The notes beneath the pieces are model-generated. The model was given only the letters and a program-made list of their open reading frames with translations. It ran no database searches and was not told the DNA's origin. The translations under genes were made by a program, and so were the position numbers. Positions 1 through 12,125 of a DNA stretch of 12,125 nt are shown in pieces. The DNA is taken from positions 1-12,125 of the IMG/VR virus record IMGVR_UViG_2534681700_000010. One strand, written 5' to 3'. The stretch's first letter is position 1; each line of letters opens with the position of its first letter. The stretch is from a virus. Taxonomy: Duplodnaviria; Heunggongvirae; Uroviricota; Caudoviricetes.

Positions 1-996
1 TTACCCTTCAAACTCTTGCTCCACAGAATCATTATCTGCGCATACAAAACCAAGCGCCTCCCCAAATCTCTCACGCGGAAAACCAGATTTGGGCACCCCC
101 ATAGAACTGTATGAACATCCCGGCATATTGGGTTTTTTGTCAAAGAGATCTGCAACCTGGCGGATCCATGTAGAATTTGGCCCGATCATTTTGACCAAAT
201 ACCAAATAATACATATCGCACTATAAAGACGCTCACTCGCAGGGGCATCTATTCTCAGTGAATTGAAGAAGGTTGTATTTGGTATTGGGATTCCAGCATG
301 TTTTCTATTCCAGATTCTGGAATGATGCGCACAACGATTACGCAAAAGATTCAGACATTGCAACCATTTGGTTAATGTTTGTTTATTGTCGATATTTAAT
401 CTTTTAATTATTTTGGCTTGTATACCACCATTCAGCATCGCGTAATATTTTGACATTTGGCCAAAATCCCAGGCTTCAACAACTACCCAAAAAGGGATCT
501 CCTTCCCCTGATTCAAATGCCAAAGAATGCACTCATCCCGGCTATCTTCCAGCTTTTTATCAAGCTTTTTCTGCCATTTTGTAAACGTGCTGGGTTTTCC
601 ATCATTAAGATAACGCTGGTTTATGTAGGATTCCTTTCTGTAAGCAAGCGGATCATATCGCCCTAATTCATGAGCGATAACGGAACGAATATGAATCTCA
701 ATACGTTCCAGGGCATCCATCATTAACATTCGAAGTTTTTTATCAAAAAGATAAAGATCGTATGCCTGCTCGAATGTAGTACCAGGGAGAAATTCATCGC
801 TCCTGAATGAAAGGCCTTCATCATTACAGCGAATGACGCGCGACGTATACCAAAACCCGGACAAGCGATAATAACCAACCTGAGACAGTTTCCTCATGGC
901 TCGCTTACAATCTCTGATTACCATGCCACGACTCAATAAAATCTCAAGCTGCTCTGAATATTCCTTATGTGGCTTTGCGGCAATCATACTCGTCAC
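1..996 (-). CDS. Abi_2-family (AbiD/AbiF-like) abortive-infection protein
   Basis: Complete ORF, stop TAA at 1-3. N-terminal EQLEILLSRGMVI...YYRLSGFWY and C-terminal LRNRCAHHSRIWNR match the conserved motifs of Abi_2 proteins as I recall them. The track start at 996 is GTG; the first ATG is at 987; neither has a strong SD. Hand counts of sampled 60-nt lines give about 25-40% GC, against about 50% in int. Confidence 0.75.
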   Translation of the reverse strand: MTSMIAAKPHKEYSEQLEILLSRGMVIRDCKRAMRKLSQVGYYRLSGFWYTSRVIRCNDEGLSFRSDEFLPGTTFEQAYDLYLFDKKLRMLMMDALERIEIHIRSVIAHELGRYDPLAYRKESYINQRYLNDGKPSTFTKWQKKLDKKLEDSRDECILWHLNQGKEIPFWVVVEAWDFGQMSKYYAMLNGGIQAKIIKRLNIDNKQTLTKWLQCLNLLRNRCAHHSRIWNRKHAGIPIPNTTFFNSLRIDAPASERLYSAICIIWYLVKMIGPNSTWIRQVADLFDKKPNMPGCSYSSMGVPKSGFPRERFGEALGFVCADNDSVEQEFEG

Positions 997-1224
997 ATGT
1001 TTTTGACAATAAAAGGCCCGACCGTGAGACTCACAAACAAAAAAGTTACGGAGAAACAGGGGATCGGGCTCGGTTGCCGCTAAATCTATTCAATTAAAAG
1101 AAGATGTCAATAGGGAAAACGAAAAAAAACAATGCTGATACTGTCATAATTTGAACAAAACCACTATATGTAGTTTTAGTTCATGAGGTTATTCGCTACC
1201 AGATGCGTCAATAGTTTTTGACTA

Positions 1225-1416
1225 TTAATAATCCCTCTTTTCCCATGTTTTTCCATCGGGGTCTTTGCGCTTGTCACTACCTGGTAACTGCTGGTGGCGT
1301 TCCTGTTGCAGCACAACGGAAACAGGCGCTGAACACCTGTTAATTTTGCTTGCTGGTTGTTTGATTCCGGCAATGCTGCGGATCATCTCCAGCAAATCGG
1401 CTTCGGTGATGGTCAT
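1225..1416 (-). CDS. Hypothetical small protein (63 aa)
   Basis: ATG at 1416 preceded by AAGGTG with a 6-nt spacer. No family recognised. Lies between the TTGACAC repeat array and the Abi gene. Confidence 0.5.
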   Translation of the reverse strand: MTITEADLLEMIRSIAGIKQPASKINRCSAPVSVVLQQERHQQLPGSDKRKDPDGKTWEKRDY

Positions 1417-1446
1417 GGTTTACACCTTAGGAAATCTTAGGGGGCT

Positions 1447-1712
1447 GGTTGACACTTTCCGGCTTAAGACCTTAACAAATCTTAACATCGCAGGTTGACA
1501 CACTTGACACTTTTTCGCGAAAAACCTTATCAAACCTTAGCATTTCTAAGCATGGCAACTTGACACTTTTCGCGATTTTTTCGGCTTTTTGACGTGGTAA
1601 ATCTGGCGAAAGGCCAGTAATGGCGGGGCTTACAGCGAGGTTGACACTTTTTTCGCGTTCAGAGTGTAAAGTGTCAACCTGGCAAGCTGCTCAACTTGAC
1701 ACTTTTTGATGT
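1447..1712. repeat. Array of TTGACAC-T(4-6)-CGCG-like repeats: five direct, one inverted, plus a degenerate half-copy
   Basis: Seen directly: TTGACAC at 1449, 1495 (half copy), 1504, 1560, 1641 and 1696 on the plus strand, and inverted GTGTCAA at 1671-1677. Four copies are followed by TTTT(T)(T)CGCG. Irregular spacing (46, 9, 56, 81, 55 bp). Interspersed AACCTTA / CTTAAC short repeats at 1468-1540. Sits immediately 3' of the HTH-protein gene (stop at 1712-1714). Confidence 0.6.
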
Positions 1713-2239
1713 CATTGATGGTCTGATTTTTCCCATTCAGCCAGGGCGTTTAGCCCGGCTTCACTCCATGATTCCAGTTCATCGGGATAATCACCTGCAA
1801 CATAGCAGAGTTCGCAACGCAGCATACGAATTGCCAGCCTGGCATTACCCCGCAAATTGTATTTTTCAAAGTAATGCTGCCCTTCATCATCCTCAAGGCA
1901 GATAGCACCATCATCAAGAAAGTGCACTTCCCAGCCTAATTCCCCGGCTGCATCCTGCACACGCTGCTGTATGTCATCGTCCGTTGCCGGCGCAGGAATT
2001 TTTCCGTCTCTGGCCTTAACTGCTTTCCAGAACTCGCCCCACGTCATTTCCAGCGTTCTTTCTGGCCACATTTCAGAAACTGTGTCTTTTCCCTGTGCTG
2101 CTGGGCTGTTCCGCTGTTCTGTCGCTTCCACATCGATTTTTTTACCGGACATGACCACTTCGCCTTTCTCGATCCAGTCGTAAACTGTCTGGCGGCTTAC
2201 GCCTTTGTGTTTGGCATATTCTGCCTTGCTCATCAGCAT
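1712..2239 (-). CDS. HTH DNA-binding protein (175 aa); possible packaging-redirection (Rpp / small-terminase-like) or regulatory protein
   Basis: N-terminus MSKAEYAKHKGVSRQTVYDWIEKGEV is a classic helix-turn-helix signature. GGTGAG SD-like sequence upstream of ATG 2239. Separated by 6 nt from the stop of the upstream ORF (operon). Functional assignment is inference. Confidence 0.7.
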   Translation of the reverse strand: MLMSKAEYAKHKGVSRQTVYDWIEKGEVVMSGKKIDVEATEQRNSPAAQGKDTVSEMWPERTLEMTWGEFWKAVKARDGKIPAPATDDDIQQRVQDAAGELGWEVHFLDDGAICLEDDEGQHYFEKYNLRGNARLAIRMLRCELCYVAGDYPDELESWSEAGLNALAEWEKSDHQ

Positions 2240-2245
2240 TATGAC

Positions 2246-2917
2246 TCACCCTTCTTTTTCCAGTTGAGCCAGCCGCCCGGATATTTCTTCCAGTTTTTCC
2301 AGGGCTGGCTTGCAGGCCGCATCAATAACGTCCCGGACCATTCCGGCAAGCTGTTCTTCTGCTGTCGGCGTTGTTACTTCCACGCCCGATGGTTTCCCGC
2401 CCTTATCCCAAACACCAAGCGGCACGAGCGCAACGTGATCGATAAGAAATGGCGTACCCTCAATAAAAAAATTGTCCTCGCCCATTACATCAGGAACTTC
2501 AGCCCCACCGGACGCACCACAAAACACAACCGACGGGCTGGTGGATACCTCCCCCCGTGCTTTCTGGATGTAATCGATGATTTCCTGCCCGTAAATCCGG
2601 CATACGCCCCACACCTCGTCACCGCGAATATACGGCAACATGACGGTGCCAATAATGCGCGACCGTTCGCCCACGTCTTCAAGGGTTTTGCTTTCGGGAT
2701 GGTCGATAATGACGGGTACTCCGGCGCAACGTTCCAGGAACTGCGGATTGAGATAAGTTTGCGGTGAACGCCAGACAAATTCTTTTTCTTCGGCGCGGTA
2801 GGCCATTCCGGTTCCTGTGATACGCAGGTTAACCAGCCACATGTTGGAAAACTGATAAGGCGACGGTAGCTGTCCGTCCCGAATCTGCTTCGCCGCCTCA
2901 ATTTCTGTTAAAAGCAT
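2246..2917 (-). CDS. Hypothetical protein (223 aa)
   Basis: Long ORF in the same orientation as its neighbours and tightly packed against the downstream HTH gene. ATG at 2917 has only a weak SD. No family recognised. Confidence 0.65.
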   Translation of the reverse strand: MLLTEIEAAKQIRDGQLPSPYQFSNMWLVNLRITGTGMAYRAEEKEFVWRSPQTYLNPQFLERCAGVPVIIDHPESKTLEDVGERSRIIGTVMLPYIRGDEVWGVCRIYGQEIIDYIQKARGEVSTSPSVVFCGASGGAEVPDVMGEDNFFIEGTPFLIDHVALVPLGVWDKGGKPSGVEVTTPTAEEQLAGMVRDVIDAACKPALEKLEEISGRLAQLEKEG

Positions 2918-2981
2918 AATGTTATCCGGTTATAAGCAATAAGCCCCGCCAAATCCGGCAGGGCTGAACTCAGCACGTTTT

Positions 2982-3566
2982 TCATGCCCCCGCGAGGCTT
3001 GCAACGTTAATTTTGACCAGGCGACGGGGAGGGATTTTGAAGGCGTTCAGCCAGACGTTCGGATCTCCCTGATATTCAGTAATACGACGACCGGCTTCAT
3101 CCATTCTTACGGTTTTACCCAAATGGCCCGGCGTGTTTTCCACGGCCCACTGAGCACTTTCCTGAGCAGCCTTGTAAATCTGATCTTCCAGCACCGCCAG
3201 CGTTGCAGAATCTGAAACGGAACGAATATCCACATCACTGAATTTTTTAGCCAGCTTCTGTGCGCCAATTAATGCACGTTTGCGGTAATCCATCGACTTT
3301 TCACCAGCAAACGGGGCCGGAGCGCGACGCCCCATATTGCTGTATGCGGAATCCGCTTTAGCCTGGGCTTCTGCCAGTGAGGATTCATCTTCGACTGACG
3401 CGACGATGTTTTGATTCGCGTTATCCTCGTCTGCTTTTGTGAAATCCTGTGCGGGGATCGCATTCAGAATTTCGATAATCTCCTGCGGAGTGCTGCCCTG
3501 CGACTCTGACAGAGCGTTAACCACCTCCATCAGTTTTAATCGCAAATCTTCTTTGCTTGCTGGCAT
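2982..3566 (-). CDS. Hypothetical acidic protein (194 aa from ATG 3566)
   Basis: ATG at 3566 preceded by AGGTGG with a 5-nt spacer; the track start at 3575 is GTG. Acidic, Ala/Glu-rich protein with no recognised domain. Confidence 0.7.
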   Translation of the reverse strand: MPASKEDLRLKLMEVVNALSESQGSTPQEIIEILNAIPAQDFTKADEDNANQNIVASVEDESSLAEAQAKADSAYSNMGRRAPAPFAGEKSMDYRKRALIGAQKLAKKFSDVDIRSVSDSATLAVLEDQIYKAAQESAQWAVENTPGHLGKTVRMDEAGRRITEYQGDPNVWLNAFKIPPRRLVKINVASLAGA

Positions 3567-3605
3567 TGTTACCACCTCTCTTTTTTCACCAAAAAATCAC
3601 GACCA

Positions 3606-3779
3606 TCAGGCCGGACGTTCTACGGGATAAAGCGCCCGCTGCATTAAACGCCGGGCGACCTCATGAATGCTCGGAGCAATCCCCAGCGGAGAATTGCGGC
3701 GTTCCTCGTCCTGGATGCGCTGTAATGCTTCAATCTGATCACGAGCGAGTAAAACGGGTTTCACGCTGGCTTTTCTCAT
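3606..3779 (-). CDS. Small protein (57 aa from ATG 3779), possible DNA-binding
   Basis: AGGAGA sits 7 nt upstream of ATG 3779; the track start at 3803 is TTG. First gene of the leftward operon after the terminator cluster. The DNA-binding fold is a guess from the KPVLLARDQIEALQRI pattern. Confidence 0.5.
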   Translation of the reverse strand: MRKASVKPVLLARDQIEALQRIQDEERRNSPLGIAPSIHEVARRLMQRALYPVERPA

Positions 3780-3903
3780 AGTCATATCTCCTGAACAAAA
3801 CAATGATTATGATTGCACAAACTGAAATGACGATCTACATCATTGCAATTTATGAAACAATAACGCATGATGATCGCGTTCTTCCCATTGACTTCAATCA
3901 CCT

Positions 3904-3944
3904 GCAAAAATAAAACCCGCAACACTTCTGGCTGCGGGTTTTTT
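3904..3944. terminator. Bidirectional intrinsic-terminator-like hairpin
   Basis: AACCCGCA (3914-3921) pairs with TGCGGGTT (3933-3940) around an 11-nt loop. Flanked by TTTTTT on the plus strand (3939-3944) and by an A-rich run 3905-3915, which reads TTTTATTTTT on the minus strand. Confidence 0.55.
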
Positions 3945-3952
3945 ACTGGCAC

Positions 3953-3976
3953 AAAAAAGCCGGGAAAAATCCCGGC
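3953..3976 (-). terminator. Intrinsic terminator downstream of the PerC-like gene
   Basis: GCCGGGA (3959-3965) pairs with TCCCGGC (3970-3976) around a 4-nt loop, followed on the minus strand by a T6 run (plus-strand A6 at 3953-3958). Starts 6 nt after the stop at 3982-3984. Confidence 0.6.
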
Positions 3977-3981
3977 CTCCG

Positions 3982-4269
3982 TCACTGACTGCAATTTTTC
4001 GATCCAGGGTATTTCCTGAATGCCTTACCATTGGGCTGATGTAATCCCATCCCGGCATGTGCCCGGCTGATGGTTTCGCGCATCTCCCCGAAATTATCCT
4101 GCCTTGCTGGTGGGCGTGCTGCCTTGCGGATACATTCCGCGCGACGTTTTGCCGCCTGTTCCCGTGCCTTGTCATCATTCGCCAGCATGATGACCTCAGC
4201 CCACCGCGCCGCCGCTCTCCGGTACAGACCACGCGCTTCCAGTGCTTCCGCTTTGCTGTCGTGAATCAT
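3982..4269 (-). CDS. PerC/Pch-like small transcriptional regulator (95 aa), tentative family call
   Basis: ATG at 4269 overlaps the upstream stop (ATGA). The AEALEARGLYRRAAARWAEV motif resembles the E-x-x-G-L-W-R-R-A-A-x-R-W core I recall for PerC-family proteins. The family call is from memory only. Confidence 0.5.
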   Translation of the reverse strand: MIHDSKAEALEARGLYRRAAARWAEVIMLANDDKAREQAAKRRAECIRKAARPPARQDNFGEMRETISRAHAGMGLHQPNGKAFRKYPGSKNCSQ

Positions 4270-4808
4270 GCGCCTGTTTTCTCCTTTGCTGCCCGGCGCT
4301 GACGTTTGCGCTTCTCATTCAGCGCCACCAGCCGCGTTTCTGCGTCCTGTTGTTCCTGTGGTGTCACCTCGCCGCACGGCTGGCCTTTCAGGTCGTAACG
4401 TGCACCACCAGCCATTAAGGCGCGGTAATAGCGCGGAGACTGCGCATAAGATGCCAGCGTCGCACGTAATGCCCCTGGCCCGAATGCCAGCCCCCTGACG
4501 GCGAGATCCTGCATCAGGTCGTCGAATATCCCCACCTTAAGCGGCTTCGGTGCTTCCCGGCTGAATAATTCAGGCCACAACTCAGTGAGGCGGTTAACGC
4601 GCCTGCGGTTTTTGCGCTGGCGCTTGGTCATATGCCGCCACGGTGTCGCCCCTGTGGGCTTCTGCTGCGCTTTCTGGTTACCGGGCATCACTTTATGCGC
4701 CGACGTGGTTTTATCCTGCTCCTGTGCCGCCTGCGTCGTTTTCTGCGGCGTGCCATAAATGCCTTTCGGTTTTCTGTTAATGGTCAGCTTAGTCATGCTT
4801 TGCCCCAT
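4266..4808 (-). CDS. ProQ/FinO-domain protein (RNA-chaperone-like), 180 aa
   Basis: PLKVGIFDDL...LRATLASYAQSPRYYRALMAGGARYDLKGQPCGEV aligns by eye to the FinO-like domain of E. coli ProQ (PLKIGIFQDL...[35 protein letters not shown]). Basic, low-complexity N-terminus. Start ATG at 4808 or 4796; both have weak SDs. Confidence 0.7.
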   Translation of the reverse strand: MGQSMTKLTINRKPKGIYGTPQKTTQAAQEQDKTTSAHKVMPGNQKAQQKPTGATPWRHMTKRQRKNRRRVNRLTELWPELFSREAPKPLKVGIFDDLMQDLAVRGLAFGPGALRATLASYAQSPRYYRALMAGGARYDLKGQPCGEVTPQEQQDAETRLVALNEKRKRQRRAAKEKTGA

Positions 4809-4814
4809 CGTTAC

Positions 4815-5152
4815 AACTGTCTACCAACTGTCTACCGATATAATTGATTGATTTATTTAATGTTATTAACTCATAACAAAAAAACAATCTGCAAACTGTC
4901 TACTAACTGTCTACCGCATTAATACATTGATAATTAATGATTTTTTCAAAGTGGTAGACAGAGTAGACAGTTAAAAGAGAAATTTTAAAAATGAACCCTT
5001 AACTATCTGTTTTTATATACCCCCCGTGGTTTAGGAATATAGAAACAACTGTCTACTCTCTACCACATTTAAAAATATCTATATAATTCAATGACTTAGC
5101 CGGTAGATAGTTGGTAGAGGGTTAAGTATTACTGTCTACCAACCGTCTACCT
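4815..5152. repeat. Putative replication origin: AACTGTCTACC iterons in both orientations around AT-rich tracts
   Basis: Direct copies at 4815-4825, 4826-4836, 4894-4904, 4905-4915, 5047-5057, 5131-5140 and 5141-5152. Inverted copies (GGTAGACAG / AGTAGACAG) at 4953-4961 and 4962-4970. Degenerate copies at 5001-5010 and 5102-5119. Very AT-rich spacers. Lies immediately 3' of the primase/helicase gene (ends 5179). Confidence 0.7.
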
Positions 5153-5178
5153 TTACGTTTCAGCTTATAAATTTCGTA

Positions 5179-6984
5179 TTATGTTCTGTCGTTAATCCCT
5201 GTTGCTGCTGGCAACCAGCCATCAGCATCATCATCTAACAGAACATTTGTTATCACTCGCCCTTTATCTGGGCCTTTAGTGCATTTAGCCCGCTTATACT
5301 CCTTTCCGTATTCCGCCATAGCACCCGGCATATCAGTGCCAAAGCGTTTCAGTGATACTGGTTTTCCCAGGCCATGCGCTGACATATAGGCTAAATAAGC
5401 ATGATACAGATATCGTCTCGGGCTAAATGGCACTATTCCCGCATTGCCCACCATCATTCCTTCACATTTAACCAACGACATCAGATAGCCGCAAAAGTCC
5501 ACCAGTGAATCACCCTCGCGTTTTATCACCAGAGCCTCTTCTGATTTCTGCTGCTCATATAACAGACGTCTGGCTTCATCCTGGTCAGAAAAACGAGTAA
5601 GCAGGTGGCGAATCACTACCGCCAGTTCGCATTCTATCTTTTCCGCCAGCATGGGATCGCGTTCGTTCTCCGGTACGACCTCAGAGAAATTAAATATCAC
5701 CCTACGACGCGAGATCCCCCCGCTTCGGTCACTGAATGACATGGCGTTATTGTTTACCGCAAGCACTACTGCCGGAATACGTGTGGAGTAGGGGGCTTTA
5801 TGTTTCGGGTCAATTGCCACCTTGTCGCCGCCAGTAATTGCCTTAATTCCTGCACCATCGCCAGCGTAGCGAGTCATATCCGGCATGATAATCAGCGAAA
5901 AGCCAACTACTAACGCGCGTTCCCTTGCGTCTTCCAGCGCCTTCATGCTTGCCGATACTGTGTTGGCCTTACCCGCCAGCATGGTACAAATCTCAGCCAT
6001 CACACTTTTACCGCTTCCGCCTGGGCCTGTTACCTCAAGGAATAACTGCCAGTCGTACCGGTTCGCCAGTACCATGAATAATGCCGCCAGTACGCGATCA
6101 GCTTTACGATCATTATCTGCCACCGAACGACGCAGCCACTTCCAGAAATTCGGCGCATGTGTTGCCAGCGTTTCCCCCTCTGCTGGCGGGCTGAACGGTA
6201 ATTCACTGGCATTTAACAACCAGTCATTTTTGTTATGCTCCCGAAAATTTCCCGTCCGGGTATCAAATACCCCGTTACTGAATCCAATAAGATTCCTGTC
6301 TGCCCCGCCCATAACAGGCAGGCTCAATTTCATTGTGTCTACGGCAAATTTAATGGCGTTTTGCGAATAACTGATTCCAGCATCAATAAAAATCTTCGCC
6401 ATAGACCGCTGGAGTTCCTTATCAGATACAGGCACCCAGACAATTCCGTTGTAATGGTGAACTACATCAGAATCATCATTTATAGCCAGTGCTCTTCCAT
6501 AATATTCAAGTAACACTTCCCCTCTCTGGCTGGCTCCCATCTGATTTAGTGCTGGCCTGGGTAGGTCAATATTTTTTGTGGTTAATTTCATCGCTGAAAC
6601 TTCCCCACTCTCTGCCTGTTCGCGGATCCGTTGCAGGTAATCGCGCCAGTTCTCCGGCTCCCGGTCGGTGATACCTTTGTATAATTTCGCCTCCTGTACG
6701 CCAGCCAGCGCCAGTTTTTCAGCGATAGCGTTGATCTGGATTGGCTCTATCTCCCCCGCAAGATAGACACGTGCAAAGCGGCGTTTCTCGTCAATAATGC
6801 GGATATTCACCAGGTCTGCCAGTTGCTTCGGCCCCAGGTAAACAGGTGGCACGTTATCGCCGTGTTTTCGTCCTTCGCTTTCAATCCAGTGTTGAGCATG
6901 GGCGTAAGCATCCGTCCCGGCAAAAATGATTACCTCGGTGAATTTATCCTTCGGCTGATATTTTAAATTCGGTGCGTTTTTCAC
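5179..6984 (-). CDS. Primase/helicase replication protein (P4-alpha / D5-like, SF3 helicase P-loop), 601 aa
   Basis: Walker A GPGGSGKS present, with a typical phage/plasmid primase C-terminal architecture. GTG start at 6984 overlaps the upstream stop (GTGA) and is preceded by GGGAGGT with a 5-nt spacer. The N-terminal region has no obvious toprim motif by eye. Confidence 0.9.
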   Translation of the reverse strand: MKNAPNLKYQPKDKFTEVIIFAGTDAYAHAQHWIESEGRKHGDNVPPVYLGPKQLADLVNIRIIDEKRRFARVYLAGEIEPIQINAIAEKLALAGVQEAKLYKGITDREPENWRDYLQRIREQAESGEVSAMKLTTKNIDLPRPALNQMGASQRGEVLLEYYGRALAINDDSDVVHHYNGIVWVPVSDKELQRSMAKIFIDAGISYSQNAIKFAVDTMKLSLPVMGGADRNLIGFSNGVFDTRTGNFREHNKNDWLLNASELPFSPPAEGETLATHAPNFWKWLRRSVADNDRKADRVLAALFMVLANRYDWQLFLEVTGPGGSGKSVMAEICTMLAGKANTVSASMKALEDARERALVVGFSLIIMPDMTRYAGDGAGIKAITGGDKVAIDPKHKAPYSTRIPAVVLAVNNNAMSFSDRSGGISRRRVIFNFSEVVPENERDPMLAEKIECELAVVIRHLLTRFSDQDEARRLLYEQQKSEEALVIKREGDSLVDFCGYLMSLVKCEGMMVGNAGIVPFSPRRYLYHAYLAYMSAHGLGKPVSLKRFGTDMPGAMAEYGKEYKRAKCTKGPDKGRVITNVLLDDDADGWLPAATGINDRT

Positions 6985-7271
6985 TTCTTACCTCCCGCAA
7001 CCAACATTGCCCGGATTTTTTTAATATTCGTGGCTGCACGTCTTGCCACTGCCTGTTGTTTGTTTTCAACCAGAATAAAATCACGCTCAAACTGACGGCG
7101 CGGCATTACGCAGTCATATTCGTAAGCCTCACGGCGGTAGGTGATATTGCCTGGCGTAACGTGACGAATAACCACTCGTCCCCCACGTCTGGTGTCGCGG
7201 TAAATATCGCCGTGTCTGATTTCAGGTCGAGCGGGGCCGCTGGCAGTAAAGCCAGAATTTTTCTTTTTCAT
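6981..7271 (-). CDS. Hypothetical basic protein (96 aa)
   Basis: ATG at 7271 with AGGAG upstream. Stop overlaps the primase GTG start. No family recognised. Confidence 0.6.
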   Translation of the reverse strand: MKKKNSGFTASGPARPEIRHGDIYRDTRRGGRVVIRHVTPGNITYRREAYEYDCVMPRRQFERDFILVENKQQAVARRAATNIKKIRAMLVAGGKK

Positions 7272-7277
7272 GGTTTT

Positions 7278-7643
7278 TTACTCCTGCGTCTTGCTCTGAA
7301 TTACCTGATAACCGCAACTGGTCAGCAATTCGATAAATTCCGGCAGTGTTCCGAAACAGCAATTATCACGCAGCCGTTCGCGGGATACTTCAACGCCGTT
7401 TTCGTAGTGACTCACCATGCGTCCGGTAAAATGCAGATCATCATCGTGATGGCACGTTGACGGCTTAATCAGTCGCGCACGTTCTGCCAGCTCCAGCAAT
7501 GCTTCAACACTTCCGGCAATTGCACCATCCGGCAGGTGGTAATTACGCACTATGCGCCCGTTCTCCACATGGACCAGTAGCTGCCCGGTAAATTTCTCGT
7601 CAAACTGAATGCGGTTAAGGTCGGTAAGTGACAGGTTAATCAT
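7278..7643 (-). CDS. Hypothetical protein (121 aa)
   Basis: ATG at 7643 preceded by AGGAGG with a 6-nt spacer. Start overlaps the stop of the upstream small ORF (ATGATTAA). Confidence 0.65.
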   Translation of the reverse strand: MINLSLTDLNRIQFDEKFTGQLLVHVENGRIVRNYHLPDGAIAGSVEALLELAERARLIKPSTCHHDDDLHFTGRMVSHYENGVEVSRERLRDNCCFGTLPEFIELLTSCGYQVIQSKTQE

Positions 7644-7839
7644 GGCGTACCTCCTGACGAATACGGGCGGCGAATACCATCACGCAGCCATCAGGAGATT
7701 GCTGGCGTGCTTCCTGTTCGCTGGTGGCCTCGATGTGAATCACGCGCGGTTGTGCCGTGCTCAGAGCGATAAAACGCCAGATGTATTTATTCAGGTTGTG
7801 CGAGTCCCGCCCTTGCGGGTGTGTGGTATGATTTCTCAT
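7636..7839 (-). CDS. Hypothetical small protein (67 aa), first gene of the primase operon
   Basis: Internal ATG at 7839 of the long track ORF, preceded by GAGGT. Its stop overlaps the next start. Upstream of this point the same reading frame has antisense-like composition. Confidence 0.5.
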   Translation of the reverse strand: MRNHTTHPQGRDSHNLNKYIWRFIALSTAQPRVIHIEATSEQEARQQSPDGCVMVFAARIRQEVRHD

Positions 7840-7905
7840 AGCTACCTCGATAATCTTGCTATCGTTGGTGGTTAGAAGCCCTGCGAGTGGTAACGACACT
7901 TGCGG

Positions 7906-7992
7906 GGCTTTGCCTTTAAGGTGCAAGTCACCTTTGAGGGTTATGCTACTTTTAGGTGACTTGCACTTCAAGCCTTTTTTTATTTTTTTTTC
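7906..7992 (+). promoter_or_regulatory. Large hairpin (perfect 12-bp inverted repeat inside an extended stem) followed by a T7-A-T9 tract
   Basis: GTGCAAGTCACC (7921-7932) and GGTGACTTGCAC (7955-7966) are perfect reverse complements. Outer GGCTT (7906-7910) pairs with AAGCC (7970-7974). T-tract at 7975-7991. Sits between the divergent RHH-like gene and the primase operon start. Confidence 0.5.
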
Positions 7993-8032
7993 TACGTATA
8001 CTGAACGCCACCTAACAGTAAGGAGGCCAGTA

Positions 8033-8212
8033 ATGCCAACGGGTACAACCAACAACAAATCACAACAAAAAACGGCTAGAATCCCTCTAGAAGTTTTAAG
8101 CGAAATGAATTTGGTCAAAGAGGAAAACGAAACAGACGCGCAGTTTATCGTTACAGCCATGCGTGGCGAGATCAAACGCCGCCAGCGCCGCAAGGCCAAA
8201 GAACAGGAGTAA
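8033..8212 (+). CDS. Small ribbon-helix-helix-like DNA-binding protein (59 aa); candidate repressor
   Basis: TAAGGAGG ends 6 nt before ATG 8033. TATACT (-10-like) at 7997-8002. Protein is hydrophilic with common E. coli codons; TARIPLEVLSEMNLV looks like an RHH beta-strand plus helix. Conflicts with the 402-aa minus-strand track ORF, which I judge antisense here. Confidence 0.55.
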   Translation: MPTGTTNNKSQQKTARIPLEVLSEMNLVKEENETDAQFIVTAMRGEIKRRQRRKAKEQE

Positions 8213-8269
8213 CCATCACCAGCGCCGTGGTGTGAGGAACTACGGTGCATCGTTTTACAGGGCAGCGCC

Positions 8270-8449
8270 ATGACCAACAAAGAATCAACCAAAACACCAT
8301 CACCAACTCGTAAGAGACGACGCAAAAATATAGCGCATGAACATGAATCAGAAAGATTCGCACCTTGTTCGTTTGCTCTTGAGAAATTCCTTAAAGAGCA
8401 CAGGAAAAAGCTCTCGTTGCAAACCTTGGAACGAACCAAATCTGACTGA
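8270..8449 (+). CDS. Possible small basic protein (59 aa), not in the ORF track
   Basis: ATG 8270 to TGA 8447-8449, translated by hand as MTNKESTKTPSPTRKRRRKNIAHEHESERFAPCSFALEKFLKEHRKKLSLQTLERTKSD. Weak SD and several rare codons (AGA, CGA, ATA, AGG). Confidence 0.3.
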   Translation: MTNKESTKTPSPTRKRRRKNIAHEHESERFAPCSFALEKFLKEHRKKLSLQTLERTKSD

Positions 8450-8653
8450 TCACATTGCCCACCAGCCGCAAATGTGGCATTGTTGGTGATGCGTTCAAGT
8501 ATGTAGCTTTTCCACTGGCGGCTCTCTGCGGTCGCCTTTGTTTTATCCAGAACGAAATCAGACATCAGATTGATCAGCACCTGGCGACCTGACAAAATCG
8601 CATCAGTCGCGCCACCAGCAAAATTTTTTGCTTTCCGGACAGCGTGGCCAACG

Positions 8654-8672
8654 ATATTTTGCAGCAAAATAT
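8654..8672. promoter_or_regulatory. Perfect 19-bp palindrome ATATTTTGC-A-GCAAAATAT
   Basis: Read directly from the sequence: 9-bp arms around a single central base. Lies in the unresolved region between the antirepressor gene and the small plus-strand ORFs. Confidence 0.35.
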
Positions 8673-8836
8673 TCTGCATTTCTGGCGTGCTGTGGCGACG
8701 GTGATCAGCGCCTTCACATTGAACGAACTTGTCGCTAAAATTCACCCACATAGCAAACATCGCGGTGCTGTAGGTAATTCGTTCACAAAGGCGCTCCGGC
8801 AACGGGGCGCTTTCTCTTTTTGTAACGGTCAGAGCG

Positions 8837-9637
8837 TTACACATGGCTGTTTTCCTCCATGCGACGGGCTAACCAACGCTGCGAAAGACGAATTAATTCA
8901 GCCTTCCGCTGGTGGTAGTCCTGGCCTAACTCAATCAGCGTGATATTGCTCTGCTCAAGGTAAGAAAGGTGCTCAAGCTGCAACGTGCTCATGTGGTCGC
9001 GTGGTTCGCCTGTAATGCCGTTCGCCAGTGCCCACTGTTTTGCAGTCATGCCACCCAGCACGATACGCGCCAGCATGTTCGCTTCCGTGGTGTAGTGGTG
9101 CTGGAGTGTGTTTTTACCCAGTTCAGCCCGGTACGCCTCCAGCGCGGCACACATTGGCTTAAAGTAGCTGGCAACTGTGATACGGGCTTTCAGTTCCCGG
9201 CGTAACGCTGCGGAACGAACAGGCGCAACCTTGTGTAGCTCCTCCTCGCATTTGATAAAGTACTGGCGAACGGCGCGGCCCTGTTCGGTACGTTCGACCA
9301 TCGCCAGTTCTTTCGCCATGTTCACTGTGATGATGTACTCAAGAGCGGTTTGCTGGCGAGATTTTGCGCTCACCGGATCGGGTCGGCTCAAATATTCAAC
9401 AACCTCATAATCCACGCCTTCCGTGAACCCGTATTCTTCAATGCGCCCCTTGATCCACGAACGGAAAACGCGCCCTACACCTAACGCCTTATGTAACGCT
9501 CTGGCGCTAACAATAGTGGTTTCACTCCCGCCAATAACGCCGGAAATAATCGGGATAATTTCGCCGAAATTTTGCAGATTCTGGTTTTCAGGCCGAACGA
9601 AGCCCCGCCCCTGTACGGGCGTTTTTGGAAATTTCAT
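8837..9637 (-). CDS. Phage antirepressor, AntA-domain protein (266 aa)
   Basis: ITVNMAKELAMVERTEQGRAVRQYFIKCEE and the preceding IPIISGVIGGSETTIVSARALHKALGV match AntA/AntB-type N-terminal antirepressor domains. ATG 9637 preceded by AGGAG with a 5-nt spacer. Confidence 0.85.
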   Translation of the reverse strand: MKFPKTPVQGRGFVRPENQNLQNFGEIIPIISGVIGGSETTIVSARALHKALGVGRVFRSWIKGRIEEYGFTEGVDYEVVEYLSRPDPVSAKSRQQTALEYIITVNMAKELAMVERTEQGRAVRQYFIKCEEELHKVAPVRSAALRRELKARITVASYFKPMCAALEAYRAELGKNTLQHHYTTEANMLARIVLGGMTAKQWALANGITGEPRDHMSTLQLEHLSYLEQSNITLIELGQDYHQRKAELIRLSQRWLARRMEENSHV

Positions 9638-9714
9638 AAAAACTCCTGCTATCGAATTAAGTTACTTTTATTTGCTGGTGGATAGCTGGGGGCAATAGCC
9701 CCGTAGCCATTTAA

Positions 9715-9912
9715 TCAGGTAGCTGTTCCGCGTGATTCCGCAATACGCTGATTAATCCACTCGTCAATTTCACTCTCAACGAAAGCAATAGCTCGCGAGC
9801 CAATTTTTACAGGTTTAGGAAAACGCCCTTGGGCAATGAGTTTATAGATCCATGCCCTTCCATACCCTGTACGGCGCATGGTTTCTGGCATACGAATTAA
9901 AGATTGTGACAT
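9715..9912 (-). CDS. alpA: AlpA-family transcriptional regulator / excisionase-like protein (65 aa from ATG 9912)
   Basis: MRRTGYGRAWIYKLIAQGRFPKPVKIGSRAIAFVESEIDEWI matches the AlpA motif pattern. GGGAGA lies 8 nt upstream of ATG 9912. The track's longer version (start 9981) is probably an N-terminal over-extension. Confidence 0.85.
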   Translation of the reverse strand: MSQSLIRMPETMRRTGYGRAWIYKLIAQGRFPKPVKIGSRAIAFVESEIDEWINQRIAESRGTAT

Positions 9913-10026
9913 GATAATCGTCTCCCGTTGTTTATTGATGCCTACGGGAGACATTGAAGCAGGTAAGACATTGGATATCACCGCAATTGCGGTGAATGAT
10001 ACCGCAATTGCGGTATAGGACTACAA

Positions 10027-10782
10027 CTACGATTTAATTGATTTATTGGCTTCAGCAAACTTTGCTTCCAGCGTTCTTGAACTCATCCCCGGCTTACCTT
10101 CAAAATGCCCCAATAAATTACTAATAATAGAGCTTTGATTTTCGAATACAGATTGCTTAATACCAGCAGGTGAACGCCCTAACATTAGAAAAAGCAACCC
10201 TCCAATAATGTTTAAATATGTTGTTTCAGAACGTTGGTCAATGTTTTGCACGGAGTTATCAACCATTCGTCGTAGTGAATCACGTTCCCCTTGTAATTCG
10301 GAAATTTCATTTTTCTGCTGTTGAAAAGTCTTCATAGCATTATCTAAGCGAATATTAAGACGTTTGTTTTCAGCCTGAAGAGTTTGATATGCCTCGACTG
10401 TAATTCCAGCATGTAACTGCTGCTCAACAGCATCAAAAAGGAAAGCTGGTTTTTGGTTGGGATAGTTTTTTGACATCCATGATTTCAGATCGGAATGACG
10501 GACGGTTAAACGGTGCTTAGCAACCTGTTCTCCAGGTTGAACAGTTTTACCATCACGACCATAAGGAATTTCACAATTATGGATTGCATCTAAAATTTTC
10601 TCAGCATTAACACGCAAGCAAGGCCATTGAGGGAACATTCCAACGCTAGGTAAAACTCCATCTCCCACTCGCTCCAATATTAAAACTTCATGAGCAATTA
10701 AATTACACCAACGTAGCGCCGCTTCAATTGGAGTGTAATATGCCTTTTCAAGAGAACTACAGCTTTTTGAATTGTAAGTCAC
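10027..10782 (-). CDS. Hypothetical protein (251 aa) with central coiled-coil and one hydrophobic helix; AT-rich accessory gene
   Basis: GTG start at 10782 preceded by GAGGT; the first in-frame ATG is codon 49. Heptad-like segment LQAENKRLNIRLDNAMKTFQQQKNEISELQGERDSLRRMV followed by YLNIIGGLLFLMLG. Hand counts on two sampled 60-nt lines give about 33% and 42% GC, against about 52% in int. Confidence 0.7.
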   Translation of the reverse strand: MTYNSKSCSSLEKAYYTPIEAALRWCNLIAHEVLILERVGDGVLPSVGMFPQWPCLRVNAEKILDAIHNCEIPYGRDGKTVQPGEQVAKHRLTVRHSDLKSWMSKNYPNQKPAFLFDAVEQQLHAGITVEAYQTLQAENKRLNIRLDNAMKTFQQQKNEISELQGERDSLRRMVDNSVQNIDQRSETTYLNIIGGLLFLMLGRSPAGIKQSVFENQSSIISNLLGHFEGKPGMSSRTLEAKFAEANKSIKS

Positions 10783-10910
10783 TCTGTGCTACCTCGCACC
10801 CTCTGTAAAAGTGGCTGTGCCAGCCCGCAGAGGTGTACGGGTTTTCAGGAGCGACCCTAGACACAGCCTTTTCTTAATCGCTCAAAGTCTACTACTGTAT
10901 ACTCAACCAG

Positions 10911-12125
10911 TCACCCGCATTTTCCGAACTCACCATGCACCACATTTCCGCCATGCTCGAGCGAATCCATATAGTCGGCATACCACTGGAGCATCTCCCG
11001 GCGACCATCCAGATATTGCGCATGGTTGTATGTGCCACGAATTGAGTTTTTATCGACGTGTGCGAGCTGCGTCTCTATCCACGCGGTGTTATAGCCCTGC
11101 TCATGCAAAATGGTGCTCATGGTGTGCCGGAATCCATGACCAGTAACGCGCCCGGCATAGCCGATACGACGAATGAGCACATTCATCGCCATTTCACTCA
11201 TTGGCTTACTGTGGTGAATACGACCGGGGAAAATAAACTGATACTGGCCTGTCATGTTTTTTAACTGCTCCAGTATTTTTATCGCCTGTTCTGGTAATGG
11301 CACACAATGCGGACGGCGCATCTTCATTCGTTCTTTAGGCACTTCCCACAAACGATTATCAAAATCGATCTCCTGCCATTCTGCCTGCCGTAATTCCCCG
11401 GGTCTGACACCTGTCAGAATTAATAGCCGCATTGCCAGTTTGACGATCTGGCTTCCGGTGTACGTATTAAAAACGCGGAAAAATTCCGGCAGTTCGTCGG
11501 CCTTCAAATAGGCGTAATGCTCTTTTTTATGTGGAGCAAATGCGCTCACCAGGTCAGGGGCTGGATTATATTCGGCGCGTCCGGTGATGATTGCGTACCG
11601 GAACACCTCGCCGCATCGCTGGCGAACCTTACGCAATTTTTCAGTCGCACCACGGTCATTAAGACGGGAAAGAACCGCCAGCAATTCCATCGGCTTAATT
11701 TCTGCGATCGGCCTACCGCCAATGTACGGAAAAACATCTTTTTCAAACGTCTCGATCATTTCCTCGGCGTATGACGATGACCACCTGTCGATCCGCTTTT
11801 CGTACCATTCGCGAGCAATACCCTCAAAAGTATTGCCAAATTTGCTCGCCTGTTCTCGCTTTTGGGCTTTTCTGGCCTCACTTGGATTTATACCACCAGC
11901 AAGAAGCCTTTTAGCCTCATCCCTTGCCGCCCTGGCATCAGACAGAGACACATCAGGGTACACACCCAACGACAACATTTTGGGCTTTCCTGCAAACCTG
12001 TAGCGCAGTCGCCACCCTTTCGAACCGTTCGGCTCAATGAGCAACGAAAGCCCGTTACCGTCATTGAGTGTATAAGCCTTTTCTTTCGGCTTCGCGCGCC
12101 TGATGGCAAGGTCTGAAAGCAGCAT
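10911..12125 (-). CDS. int: Tyrosine site-specific integrase, P4/IntA family
   Basis: Close by-eye match to E. coli IntA-type integrases: N-terminal LSDLAIRRAKPKEKAY...DGNGLSLLI arm-binding region and C-terminal HGFRHT...RGTYNHAQY catalytic region. The ATG falls on the last three bases of the window, so the true start may be slightly upstream and outside it. Confidence 0.95.
   Translation of the reverse strand: MLLSDLAIRRAKPKEKAYTLNDGNGLSLLIEPNGSKGWRLRYRFAGKPKMLSLGVYPDVSLSDARAARDEAKRLLAGGINPSEARKAQKREQASKFGNTFEGIAREWYEKRIDRWSSSYAEEMIETFEKDVFPYIGGRPIAEIKPMELLAVLSRLNDRGATEKLRKVRQRCGEVFRYAIITGRAEYNPAPDLVSAFAPHKKEHYAYLKADELPEFFRVFNTYTGSQIVKLAMRLLILTGVRPGELRQAEWQEIDFDNRLWEVPKERMKMRRPHCVPLPEQAIKILEQLKNMTGQYQFIFPGRIHHSKPMSEMAMNVLIRRIGYAGRVTGHGFRHTMSTILHEQGYNTAWIETQLAHVDKNSIRGTYNHAQYLDGRREMLQWYADYMDSLEHGGNVVHGEFGKCG

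Follow-up and report, generated by a model that had tools for sequence, protein, structure and literature searches.

The window considered here is a stretch of 12,125 nucleotides (IMG/VR record IMGVR_UViG_2534681700_000010, positions 1 to 12,125). It very probably represents the int-to-AbiD portion of a 13.7-kb satellite of the phage-inducible chromosomal island (PICI) type, which in an Escherichia chromosome is inserted at the 3′ end of tRNA-Gly(CCC) (glyU). The minus strand carries every gene except two small open reading frames (ORFs). Reading from the integrase, the order is int, an int-alpA RNA motif, an uncharacterised gene termed X, alpA, an antA-type antirepressor gene and a 0.6-kb spacer with the two small opposed ORFs. 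These are followed by an icd-like gene, a 121-aa gene, a DUF4222 gene, a D5-type primase-helicase gene, an iteron-bearing spacer, and genes for ProQ/FinO-domain and PerC-family proteins. The remainder consists of a small ORF, hyp197, a DUF2213 gene, a gene for a 175-aa helix-turn-helix (HTH) protein, an array of AAGTGTCAA repeats, a 63-aa gene and AbiD. An exact look-up of the primase protein led to four NCBI assemblies (L060-L063), in which the entire window is 100% identical at positions 4860-16984, in reverse complement. The core features are as follows.

10911-12125, minus strand: tyrosine integrase (Int), 404 aa, first gene of the element (Pfam Arm-DNA-bind_3, Phage_int_M, Phage_integrase).
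10799-10867, minus strand: int-alpA RNA motif, Rfam RF02996 (49.8 bits against a gathering threshold of 35.8; E = 5e-8).
10027-10782, minus strand: X (hyp251), 251 aa, GTG start at 10782, uncharacterised family.
9980-9993 and 10001-10014: two exact 14-nt palindromes, ACCGCAATTGCGGT, 21 bp apart, after the stop of X and upstream of alpA.
9715-9912, minus strand: AlpA, 65 aa, excisionase/transcriptional activator type (Pfam Phage_AlpA 2.5e-19; called in L060).
8837-9637, minus strand: AntA/AntB-type antirepressor, 266 aa (Pfam AntA 2.5e-23; PHROG anti-repressor Ant 2e-41).
5179-6984, minus strand: primase-helicase (pri-rep), 601 aa (Pfam D5_N, DUF5906, Pox_D5; phrog_864 DNA primase 5e-155).
4809-5178: replication origin, a spacer of 31% GC directly after pri, with AACTGTCTACC iterons in both orientations around an AT-rich centre.

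The boundaries of the island are given by a 19-nt direct repeat, TTCCCTTCGCCCGCTCCAA, which corresponds to the 3′ end of tRNA-Gly(CCC), together with the divergence of the sister assemblies. The repeat is present at L060 4678-4696 and 18370-18388, and the second copy coincides exactly with the point where the sister assemblies part. The distance between the copies is 13.7 kb. The tRNA gene is located at L060 4622-4695, 164 nt outside int, so that the left attachment (att) site, attL, and the tRNA lie 164-182 nt past the end of the window. The island extends beyond the window by approximately 180 nt at the int side, up to attL, and by approximately 1.4 kb at the AbiD side. In L060-L063, the left flank is xdhCBA-actS and the right flank contains variable non-phage genes; neither these flanks nor the island contain phage structural or lysis genes. 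The satellite proposed by an earlier, sequence-only reading therefore stands, and a prophage is rejected, as structural and lysis genes are neither inside the island nor contiguous with it. The att repeats and flanking tRNA which that reading had suggested locating are both in place.

The same glyU-actS site is occupied by relatives in complete E. coli genomes, while other relatives are found at tRNA-Thr/proA or adjoining abgR and carry other integrases. The att repeats were not found in the closest complete genome (L001, TUM9812), where the copy has been rearranged by insertion sequence elements. In E. coli 08-00022 (L066), a further element lies directly beyond the satellite int (19081-24248), apparently in tandem at the same site; it carries an integrase of its own as well as a major capsid gene.

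The class was assessed against the five core components used by SatelliteFinder (PMC10085698), as read from the annotation; for capsid morphogenesis and packaging, the genes described below are candidates. An integrase is present with an AlpA regulator near it, a primase is followed by an iteron origin, and an att site is combined with a length of 13.7 kb. Tail, holin, portal and head-tail connector genes are absent from the window, the rest of the island and the flanks. Searches of all ORFs with Pfam and PHROG returned no portal, major capsid, tail, lysis or large-terminase gene. A capsid-forming PICI (cfPICI) is rejected, as an own major capsid, portal, head-tail adaptor/connector or large terminase was not found. 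The origin contains eight copies of CTGTCTAC where 0.12 are expected, the iterons spanning 4813-5150, and this layout agrees with published PICI origins (PMC6092414). The synteny comparison with PICIs and P4-like satellites that had been proposed gave an enterobacterial PICI order, not a P4-like one.

A contrast in base composition, suggested at first reading between a backbone of about 50% GC and two far more AT-rich genes, is borne out. The AbiD gene (1-996) has 41.7% GC and 40.1% GC at third codon positions (GC3; Fisher p = 1e-8 against the other coding sequences), and X has 38.9% GC and 28.6% GC3 (Fisher p = 7e-11 and 7e-14, respectively), the latter being the lowest GC3 of the window (0.286). 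The remaining 15 coding sequences, when pooled, have 51.3% GC and 53.0% GC3, and the chromosomal flank in L060 has 51.6% GC. A sliding profile of 400 nt is consistent with these values, with approximately 39-42% at 1-1200, 38-41% at 9800-10800 and 47-56% for most else; the exceptions are the dip at the origin and a peak at the ProQ/PerC genes. The backbone is not uniform: the origin spacer has 31% GC, the ProQ/PerC genes 57-59% (ProQ p = 3e-4), and the GC3 of alpA is low at 0.35. X had also been placed at an end of the visible region, which is incorrect, as int lies outside it.

The AT-rich stretches coincide with those that are replaced between relatives. When the window is compared with the two closest complete genomes (L001 and L002), identity is 93-99.5% outside three divergent stretches, namely 1-1287 (against L002), 7914-8181 and 9871-10809, with breakpoints at 1287/1288, 7913/8182 and 9870/10810. 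Their GC contents are 40.9, 42.2 and 40.1%, respectively, against 50.1-50.5% for the three conserved blocks. The stretch at 7914-8181 (42% GC), within the antA-icd interval, forms a third variable segment in addition to those containing AbiD and X. Some part of the window is matched by 1849 of 5426 complete E. coli genomes; the full AbiD stretch is found in one of the 5426 and the 9871-10809 stretch in eight. The eight genomes sharing X carry a RepA-type helicase or another capsid module, and one has another integrase and att site. The notion of a conserved backbone with exchangeable slots consequently holds for the slots and not wholly for the backbone, which is itself mosaic: judged from the genomes compared, the replication gene, capsid module, integrase and attachment site vary among relatives.

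The last conserved gene of the element and the 3′ variable segment that follows it have the following features.

1225-1416, minus strand: hyp63, last of the conserved genes (retained in L001-L004 and L013).
1-987 or 1-996, minus strand: AbiD/Abi_2 abortive-infection gene (Pfam Abi_2 8e-54; PADLOC AbiD 4.5e-62; phrog_2158).

Similarity to most relatives stops at approximately 1288, and the cargo after the 63-aa gene consists in relatives of AbiD with SieB, a DUF4747 gene with a partner gene, or SieB. The AbiD protein matches PF07751 at full length (183 bits, profile positions 2-184 of 184). It is preceded by a promoter-like site, TTGACA-16-TAGATT, at 1083-1110; the sigma-70 scan returned fewer sites than shuffled sequence and, this site excepted, was not used for operon mapping. 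In the outer 1.4 kb of the island (L060 17315-18210), just before the right attachment site (attR), a gene for a SocA/Panacea-domain antitoxin overlaps a 147-aa partner by 4 nt. The partner has no Pfam family, and from their arrangement the two genes look like a toxin-antitoxin pair stacked after AbiD. By gene content, the designation of the 3′ slot as defence cargo, comprising AbiD and the Panacea-type pair just outside the window, is solid. Abi_2 genes are also terminal in Streptococcus satellite records. Of the two AT-rich genes regarded as cargo, AbiD fits this description as a recognised defence gene with a promoter-like site; X does not behave as free cargo, as it is swapped together with the palindromes of alpA.

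The X family comprises approximately 700 homologues of uniform length (251-255 aa) in Gamma- and Betaproteobacteria. No match to X was found in Pfam, PHROG or PADLOC, or in 50,697 phage records. The NCBI label of ‘protein kinase’ is supported by no search, and the profile of X against PDB sequences gave coiled-coil noise only. AlphaFold models (predicted local distance difference test, pLDDT, 82-83) have an N-terminal alpha/beta domain, which appears winged-helix-like in the models, a coiled coil of approximately 50 residues and a helical C-terminal domain. Approximately 35 X loci were inspected, from E. coli, marine Gammaproteobacteria, Comamonadaceae and 24 IMG/VR contigs. After X, the next gene on the same strand is alpA throughout, save at contig ends or where the sequence is too divergent, and an integrase usually precedes X. 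In one such locus (L005), identity to the window is 55% for X, 45% for Int and 31% for AlpA; in another (L009), it is 55% for X and 36% for Int, and the AlpA of the window finds no match. Over 14 non-independent loci, the identity of X tracks that of AlpA (Spearman 0.87) more closely than that of Int (0.62).

The unit that is swapped relative to L001 extends into alpA. Similarity resumes at 9870, and the differences between the two AlpA alleles are confined to residues 1-33, the DNA-reading half of the protein. Between X and alpA, the ACCGCAATTGCGGT pair occurs nowhere else in the island, the att regions included, and its position makes it a candidate pair of operators. Paired palindromes follow the stop of X in all 11 X-bearing spacers that were read, that of the window included. 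They are of CCGCAAnTGCGG types; the Comamonadaceae have ACCCCAGTTGGGGT, and the most distant group has ATTGCAnTGCAAT. Elements with an unrelated slot protein of 255-265 aa contain four to six repeats of TACCCTnAGGGTA type instead. The element in L066 combines the AlpA N-terminal type of L001 with a third slot protein and with repeats that differ, which indicates that the repeats go with the slot gene and not with AlpA.

On the other side of X is the int-alpA RNA. It consists of a branched stem with a U-run and AGAGGG behind it, the latter resembling a Shine-Dalgarno sequence, and its end is 16 nt from the start of X. The motif is found at the same place in L001, L004, L009, L037, L046 and L047. 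In both allele types the slot gene follows immediately, and the motif is also upstream of that gene in a Comamonadaceae island.

Taken together, there is about an even chance that X is one interchangeable version of an alpA control cassette, made up of the RNA leader, a dimeric DNA-binding protein, the palindromes and the DNA-reading half of AlpA. Such a cassette would set when alpA is expressed. From the models, we infer that a coiled-coil dimer with a winged-helix domain may bind the palindromes. Several points weigh against this interpretation. The slot between int and alpA is empty in relatives with the same backbone or of the same family (L065 and EcCIMP1, an island of E. coli MP1), so that the family can do without X. 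Where the slot is filled, the proteins belong to three unrelated families (hhalign probability <1%), all at 39-42% GC, as foreign cargo would be; a C-terminal motif thought to be shared by the three was dropped on the same comparison. The sigma-70 scan found no sigma-70-like promoter in the X-alpA spacer.

The alternative that survives best, although it is possible rather than probable, is that X is ordinary exchangeable accessory cargo, such as an undescribed anti-phage gene in the accessory region known at the 5′ side of PICIs. Its proximity to alpA would in that case merely follow from the location of the hotspot. Published PICIs do carry accessory genes in the interval from int to the regulator (PMC10085698, PMC11364771). 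The extreme GC3 of X, its rarity among E. coli genomes and its absence from L065 and EcCIMP1 would be expected of cargo, and X is replaced by unrelated genes in elements with 99-100% identical integrases. Several points argue otherwise. The swapped unit takes in the palindromes of the alpA promoter and the N-terminal half of AlpA, and X shows stronger conservation than its neighbours Int and AlpA. Defence genes normally occur in many kinds of hotspot, whereas X was never away from alpA in the loci of distant taxa and never in phage records. PADLOC has no match to X, and no recognised defence gene stands at the 5′ position.

It is improbable that X is instead an accessory factor of excision or integration, a directionality or architectural protein acting with Int and AlpA. 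The order int-X-alpA is conserved, and a precedent exists in the PICMI satellites, in which a gene adjoining or overlapping int, before alpA, is essential for excision and belongs to 13 unrelated families (PMC10803314). The palindromes, however, are found before alpA only, with none near attL or attR. In addition, X keeps its alpA neighbour in L050-L059, often without an integrase directly upstream, and is absent from functional relatives such as EcCIMP1.

A broader form of the cassette interpretation is that X, the int-alpA RNA and the palindromes form an unrecognised master switch of AlpA-type islands, with X as a dimeric operator-binding repressor or sensor gating alpA. This is put forward tentatively, as the less likely outcome. 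If true, X would be a functional counterpart of the Stl of Staphylococcus aureus pathogenicity islands (SaPIs), gating satellite induction; Gram-negative PICIs are not known to have such a counterpart. The other AT-rich slot genes, which are unrelated to X and have repeats of their own, would in that case represent alternatives that set helper-phage specificity.

Between PerC and the 63-aa gene lies a module with a possible role in capsid morphogenesis and packaging.

3606-3779, minus strand: 57-aa ORF, part of the putative capsid-morphogenesis module.
2982-3575, minus strand: hyp197 (phrog_6216; 59% identity to residues 280-422 of a 430-aa protein of phage Rac-SA53).
2246-2917, minus strand: DUF2213 protein (phrog_6216; 54% identity to residues 1-226 of the same Rac-SA53 protein).
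1712-2239, minus strand: 175-aa protein with a small-terminase-like N-terminal HTH (phrog_57 terminase small subunit 1.2e-7, residues 1-42 only).
1449-1704: six AAGTGTCAA repeats, five one way and one inverted, directly downstream of the terminase-like gene.

A single gene of Rac-SA53 thus corresponds to two satellite genes in swapped order, the C-terminal part (hyp197) being encoded first. In the phage, the 430-aa gene is preceded by terS, terL, a putative portal gene and one further gene, and is followed by a putative capsid gene; by this order it is at the scaffold/protease position. The CpmB protein of SaPIs mimics the capsid-binding end of the helper's scaffold, and by analogy the C-terminal domain of a scaffold, when free, could be a competitor for capsid protein. 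The likeness of hyp197 and the DUF2213 protein to Rac-SA53 makes Rac-SA53-like phages candidate helpers. The 175-aa protein is a candidate packaging-redirection protein on account of its HTH, although Pfam HTH_17 remains below threshold. The AAGTGTCAA repeats, present in six copies against 0.12 expected and also in L001, are a possible packaging or regulatory site. A cosN of lambda/phi80 type (GGGCGGCGACCT, up to two mismatches) is absent. The terminase-like protein, the DUF2213 protein and hyp197 were also compared with PDB sequences, with no meaningful match.

Upstream of this module, the backbone contains further small and regulatory genes.

8270-8449, plus strand: 59-aa ORF (gene call).
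8033-8212, plus strand: YlcI/YnfO-like ORF (NCBIfam YlcI_YnfO_N 1e-16; gene call).
7636-7839, minus strand: Icd-like small protein, 67 aa (NCBIfam phage_ICD_like 4.6e-20; phrog_6196; called in L060).
7278-7643, minus strand: hyp121, leading toward the primase gene by overlap.
6981-7271, minus strand: DUF4222 protein, overlapping the primase start.
4266-4808, minus strand: ProQ/FinO-domain protein (Pfam ProQ 1e-24).
3982-4269, minus strand: PerC-family regulator (Pfam PerC 2e-32).

The two plus-strand ORFs (8033-8449) include a match to phrog_21027, and each is followed by a terminator-like hairpin (8222-8248 and 8517-8536). A 402-aa ORF on the minus strand (7636-8844), called in one assembly, is almost certainly no gene: only its last 67 codons or so are Icd-like, and most gene callers place the two small opposite-strand genes inside it. 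Homologues of PerC have been reported in E. coli PICIs (PMC11773190, PMC6092414). The ProQ/FinO and PerC genes (3982-4808, minus strand) form a high-GC outlier, in the direction opposite to the cargo. In L001, the ProQ gene has a 0.3-kb deletion. In L003, extra genes between the replication gene and ProQ (6137-8175), including one for an SDH-family Clp-fold serine proteinase, occupy the third PICI accessory position next to pri (PMC11364771), where the window has none. An X-bearing IMG/VR contig (L037) encodes isrK and C4 antisense RNAs downstream of alpA (4322-4549), as in the immI of P1; an Rfam scan did not detect C4/isrK antisense RNA in the window. Rfam matches to ncr1175 and mir-9261 in the window were below thresholds and taken as chance.

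Three start-stop overlaps had been noted in the backbone, and all are present on the minus strand where they had been placed. At 7636-7643, plus-strand TTAATCAT reads as ATGATTAA on the minus strand, and the icd-like stop overlaps the start of hyp121. At 6981-6984, TCAC reads as GTGA, where the DUF4222 stop overlaps the primase start, and at 4266-4269, TCAT reads as ATGA, where the ProQ stop overlaps the PerC start. Identical overlaps are annotated in relatives. Overlaps of four and eight bases are the commonest kind in bacterial operons. The translational coupling which had been deduced from them alone is compatible with these sequences, though not demonstrated by them.

A P4-like satellite or a decayed prophage remnant in place of a PICI is highly improbable. 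As in P4-like elements, the island has int, alpA, a D5-type primase and an icd-like gene, and a typical P4-like satellite scores as a three-component PICI in SatelliteFinder (PMC10085698). The primase reaches 96.9 bits against the P4-family model TIGR01613 (cut-off 108.7). A P4-like satellite is nevertheless rejected, as no homologue of Psu, Sid, Delta (Ogr_Delta) or Epsilon was found in any ORF with Pfam and PHROGs; the iteron origin after pri is PICI-like, and the capsid-module and terminase-like genes are in PICI positions. Against a remnant, the 13.7-kb element retains intact att repeats and ORFs and conserved overlaps, and tail, lysis, portal and capsid genes were not found.

A PICI accordingly remains the preferred class, and its life cycle can be outlined from published Gram-negative PICIs. 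A helper phage would switch on alpA. AlpA and Int would excise the island, and AlpA would drive a single long minus-strand operon. Replication from the iteron origin would be carried out by the primase. Helper capsids and packaging would be diverted to the island by the split scaffold/protease-like pair and the terminase-like HTH protein, possibly by action on the AAGTGTCAA array. In the integrated state, AbiD, from its own promoter, and the Panacea-type pair would protect the host against other phages. Some points weigh against this outline. The element is known from its sequence, and we infer induction, excision, packaging and the helper phage by analogy. The Pfam match of the DUF2213 protein is modest (28 bits), and the protease/scaffold function is deduced from gene position in one phage. 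The terminase-like assignment depends on 42 residues, and homologues of this protein are absent from the phage records and PDB sequences.

The combination of a core with replaceable accessory and defence genes near both ends is an already published pattern, and the element is annotated in public genomes. It is a clean worked example, in which the boundaries are exact, low GC marks the replaced segments base for base, and the 3′ cargo stacks two defence-type units. The int-alpA interval is the only part that may lead to something new. A 2018 study (PMC6092414) did not settle the means by which helper phages turn on alpA in Gram-negative PICIs, and a conserved cassette of RNA, protein and operators between int and alpA would make this question testable.

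Published PICIs combine five core functions with accessory genes that lie after terS and in the interval from int to the regulator (PMC10085698), immune systems are found at the 5′ and 3′ ends of PICIs (PMC11364771), and both the role of AlpA and the layout of the origin in Gram-negative PICIs have been described (PMC6092414). Judged from published descriptions, the element resembles the EcCI-type PICIs EcCICFT073 and EcCIEDL933 (PMC6092414), which have int, alpA and pri in one direction and an origin of two iteron sets around an AT-rich centre. It also shares with them a PerC-like gene, capsid- and packaging-related genes, terminal accessory genes, a length of approximately 10-15 kb and the lack of tail and lysis genes. 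Unlike the EcCI type, the element has no lambda-type cosN, and its terminase-like protein has no sequence match to PDB chains, a set that includes RppC (6hn7). The 6hn7 structure was seen only as a weak fold match of another protein. The capsid module is a split, order-swapped scaffold/protease-like pair, whereas EcCICFT073 has capsid and decoration homologues (PMC6092414).

EcCIMP1 (PMC11773190; NZ_CP139039, 3565708-3585670) is an experimentally induced PICI with the same order of int, alpA, antA, DUF4222, icd-like, primase and PerC genes. Its identity to the window is 66% for Int, 76% for AlpA, 58% for AntA, 46% for PerC and 39% for Icd. It differs in its length of 20 kb, its site at tRNA-Thr next to proA and its P22-like ejection-protein genes. 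The primases are unrelated, with TOPRIM/DUF927 in EcCIMP1 and D5_N/DUF5906 in the window, and EcCIMP1 lacks AbiD as well as any gene separating int from alpA.

Similar to the element described here, the PICMI satellites of Vibrionaceae (PMC10803314) have a core of int, an unknown gene, alpA and primase with distal defence genes. The gene after int belongs to many unrelated families and is required for excision in PICMI115 (PMC10803314). PICMIs are smaller (approximately 6 kb), integrate at fis and lack capsid and packaging genes; in the window, unlike in PICMIs, the gene after int does not overlap int, the RNA motif being located between them. The name of RF02996 is matched by its position between int and alpA, although here a protein gene separates the two. 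The arrangement of a core with replaceable anti-phage genes near its ends is also that of satellite defence hotspots, both at PICI ends (PMC11364771) and in the P4 hotspot (Rousset et al. 2022, as cited in that paper). Unlike the occupants of such hotspots, the 5′ occupant in this element, which is not a recognised defence gene, travels with the control region of alpA.

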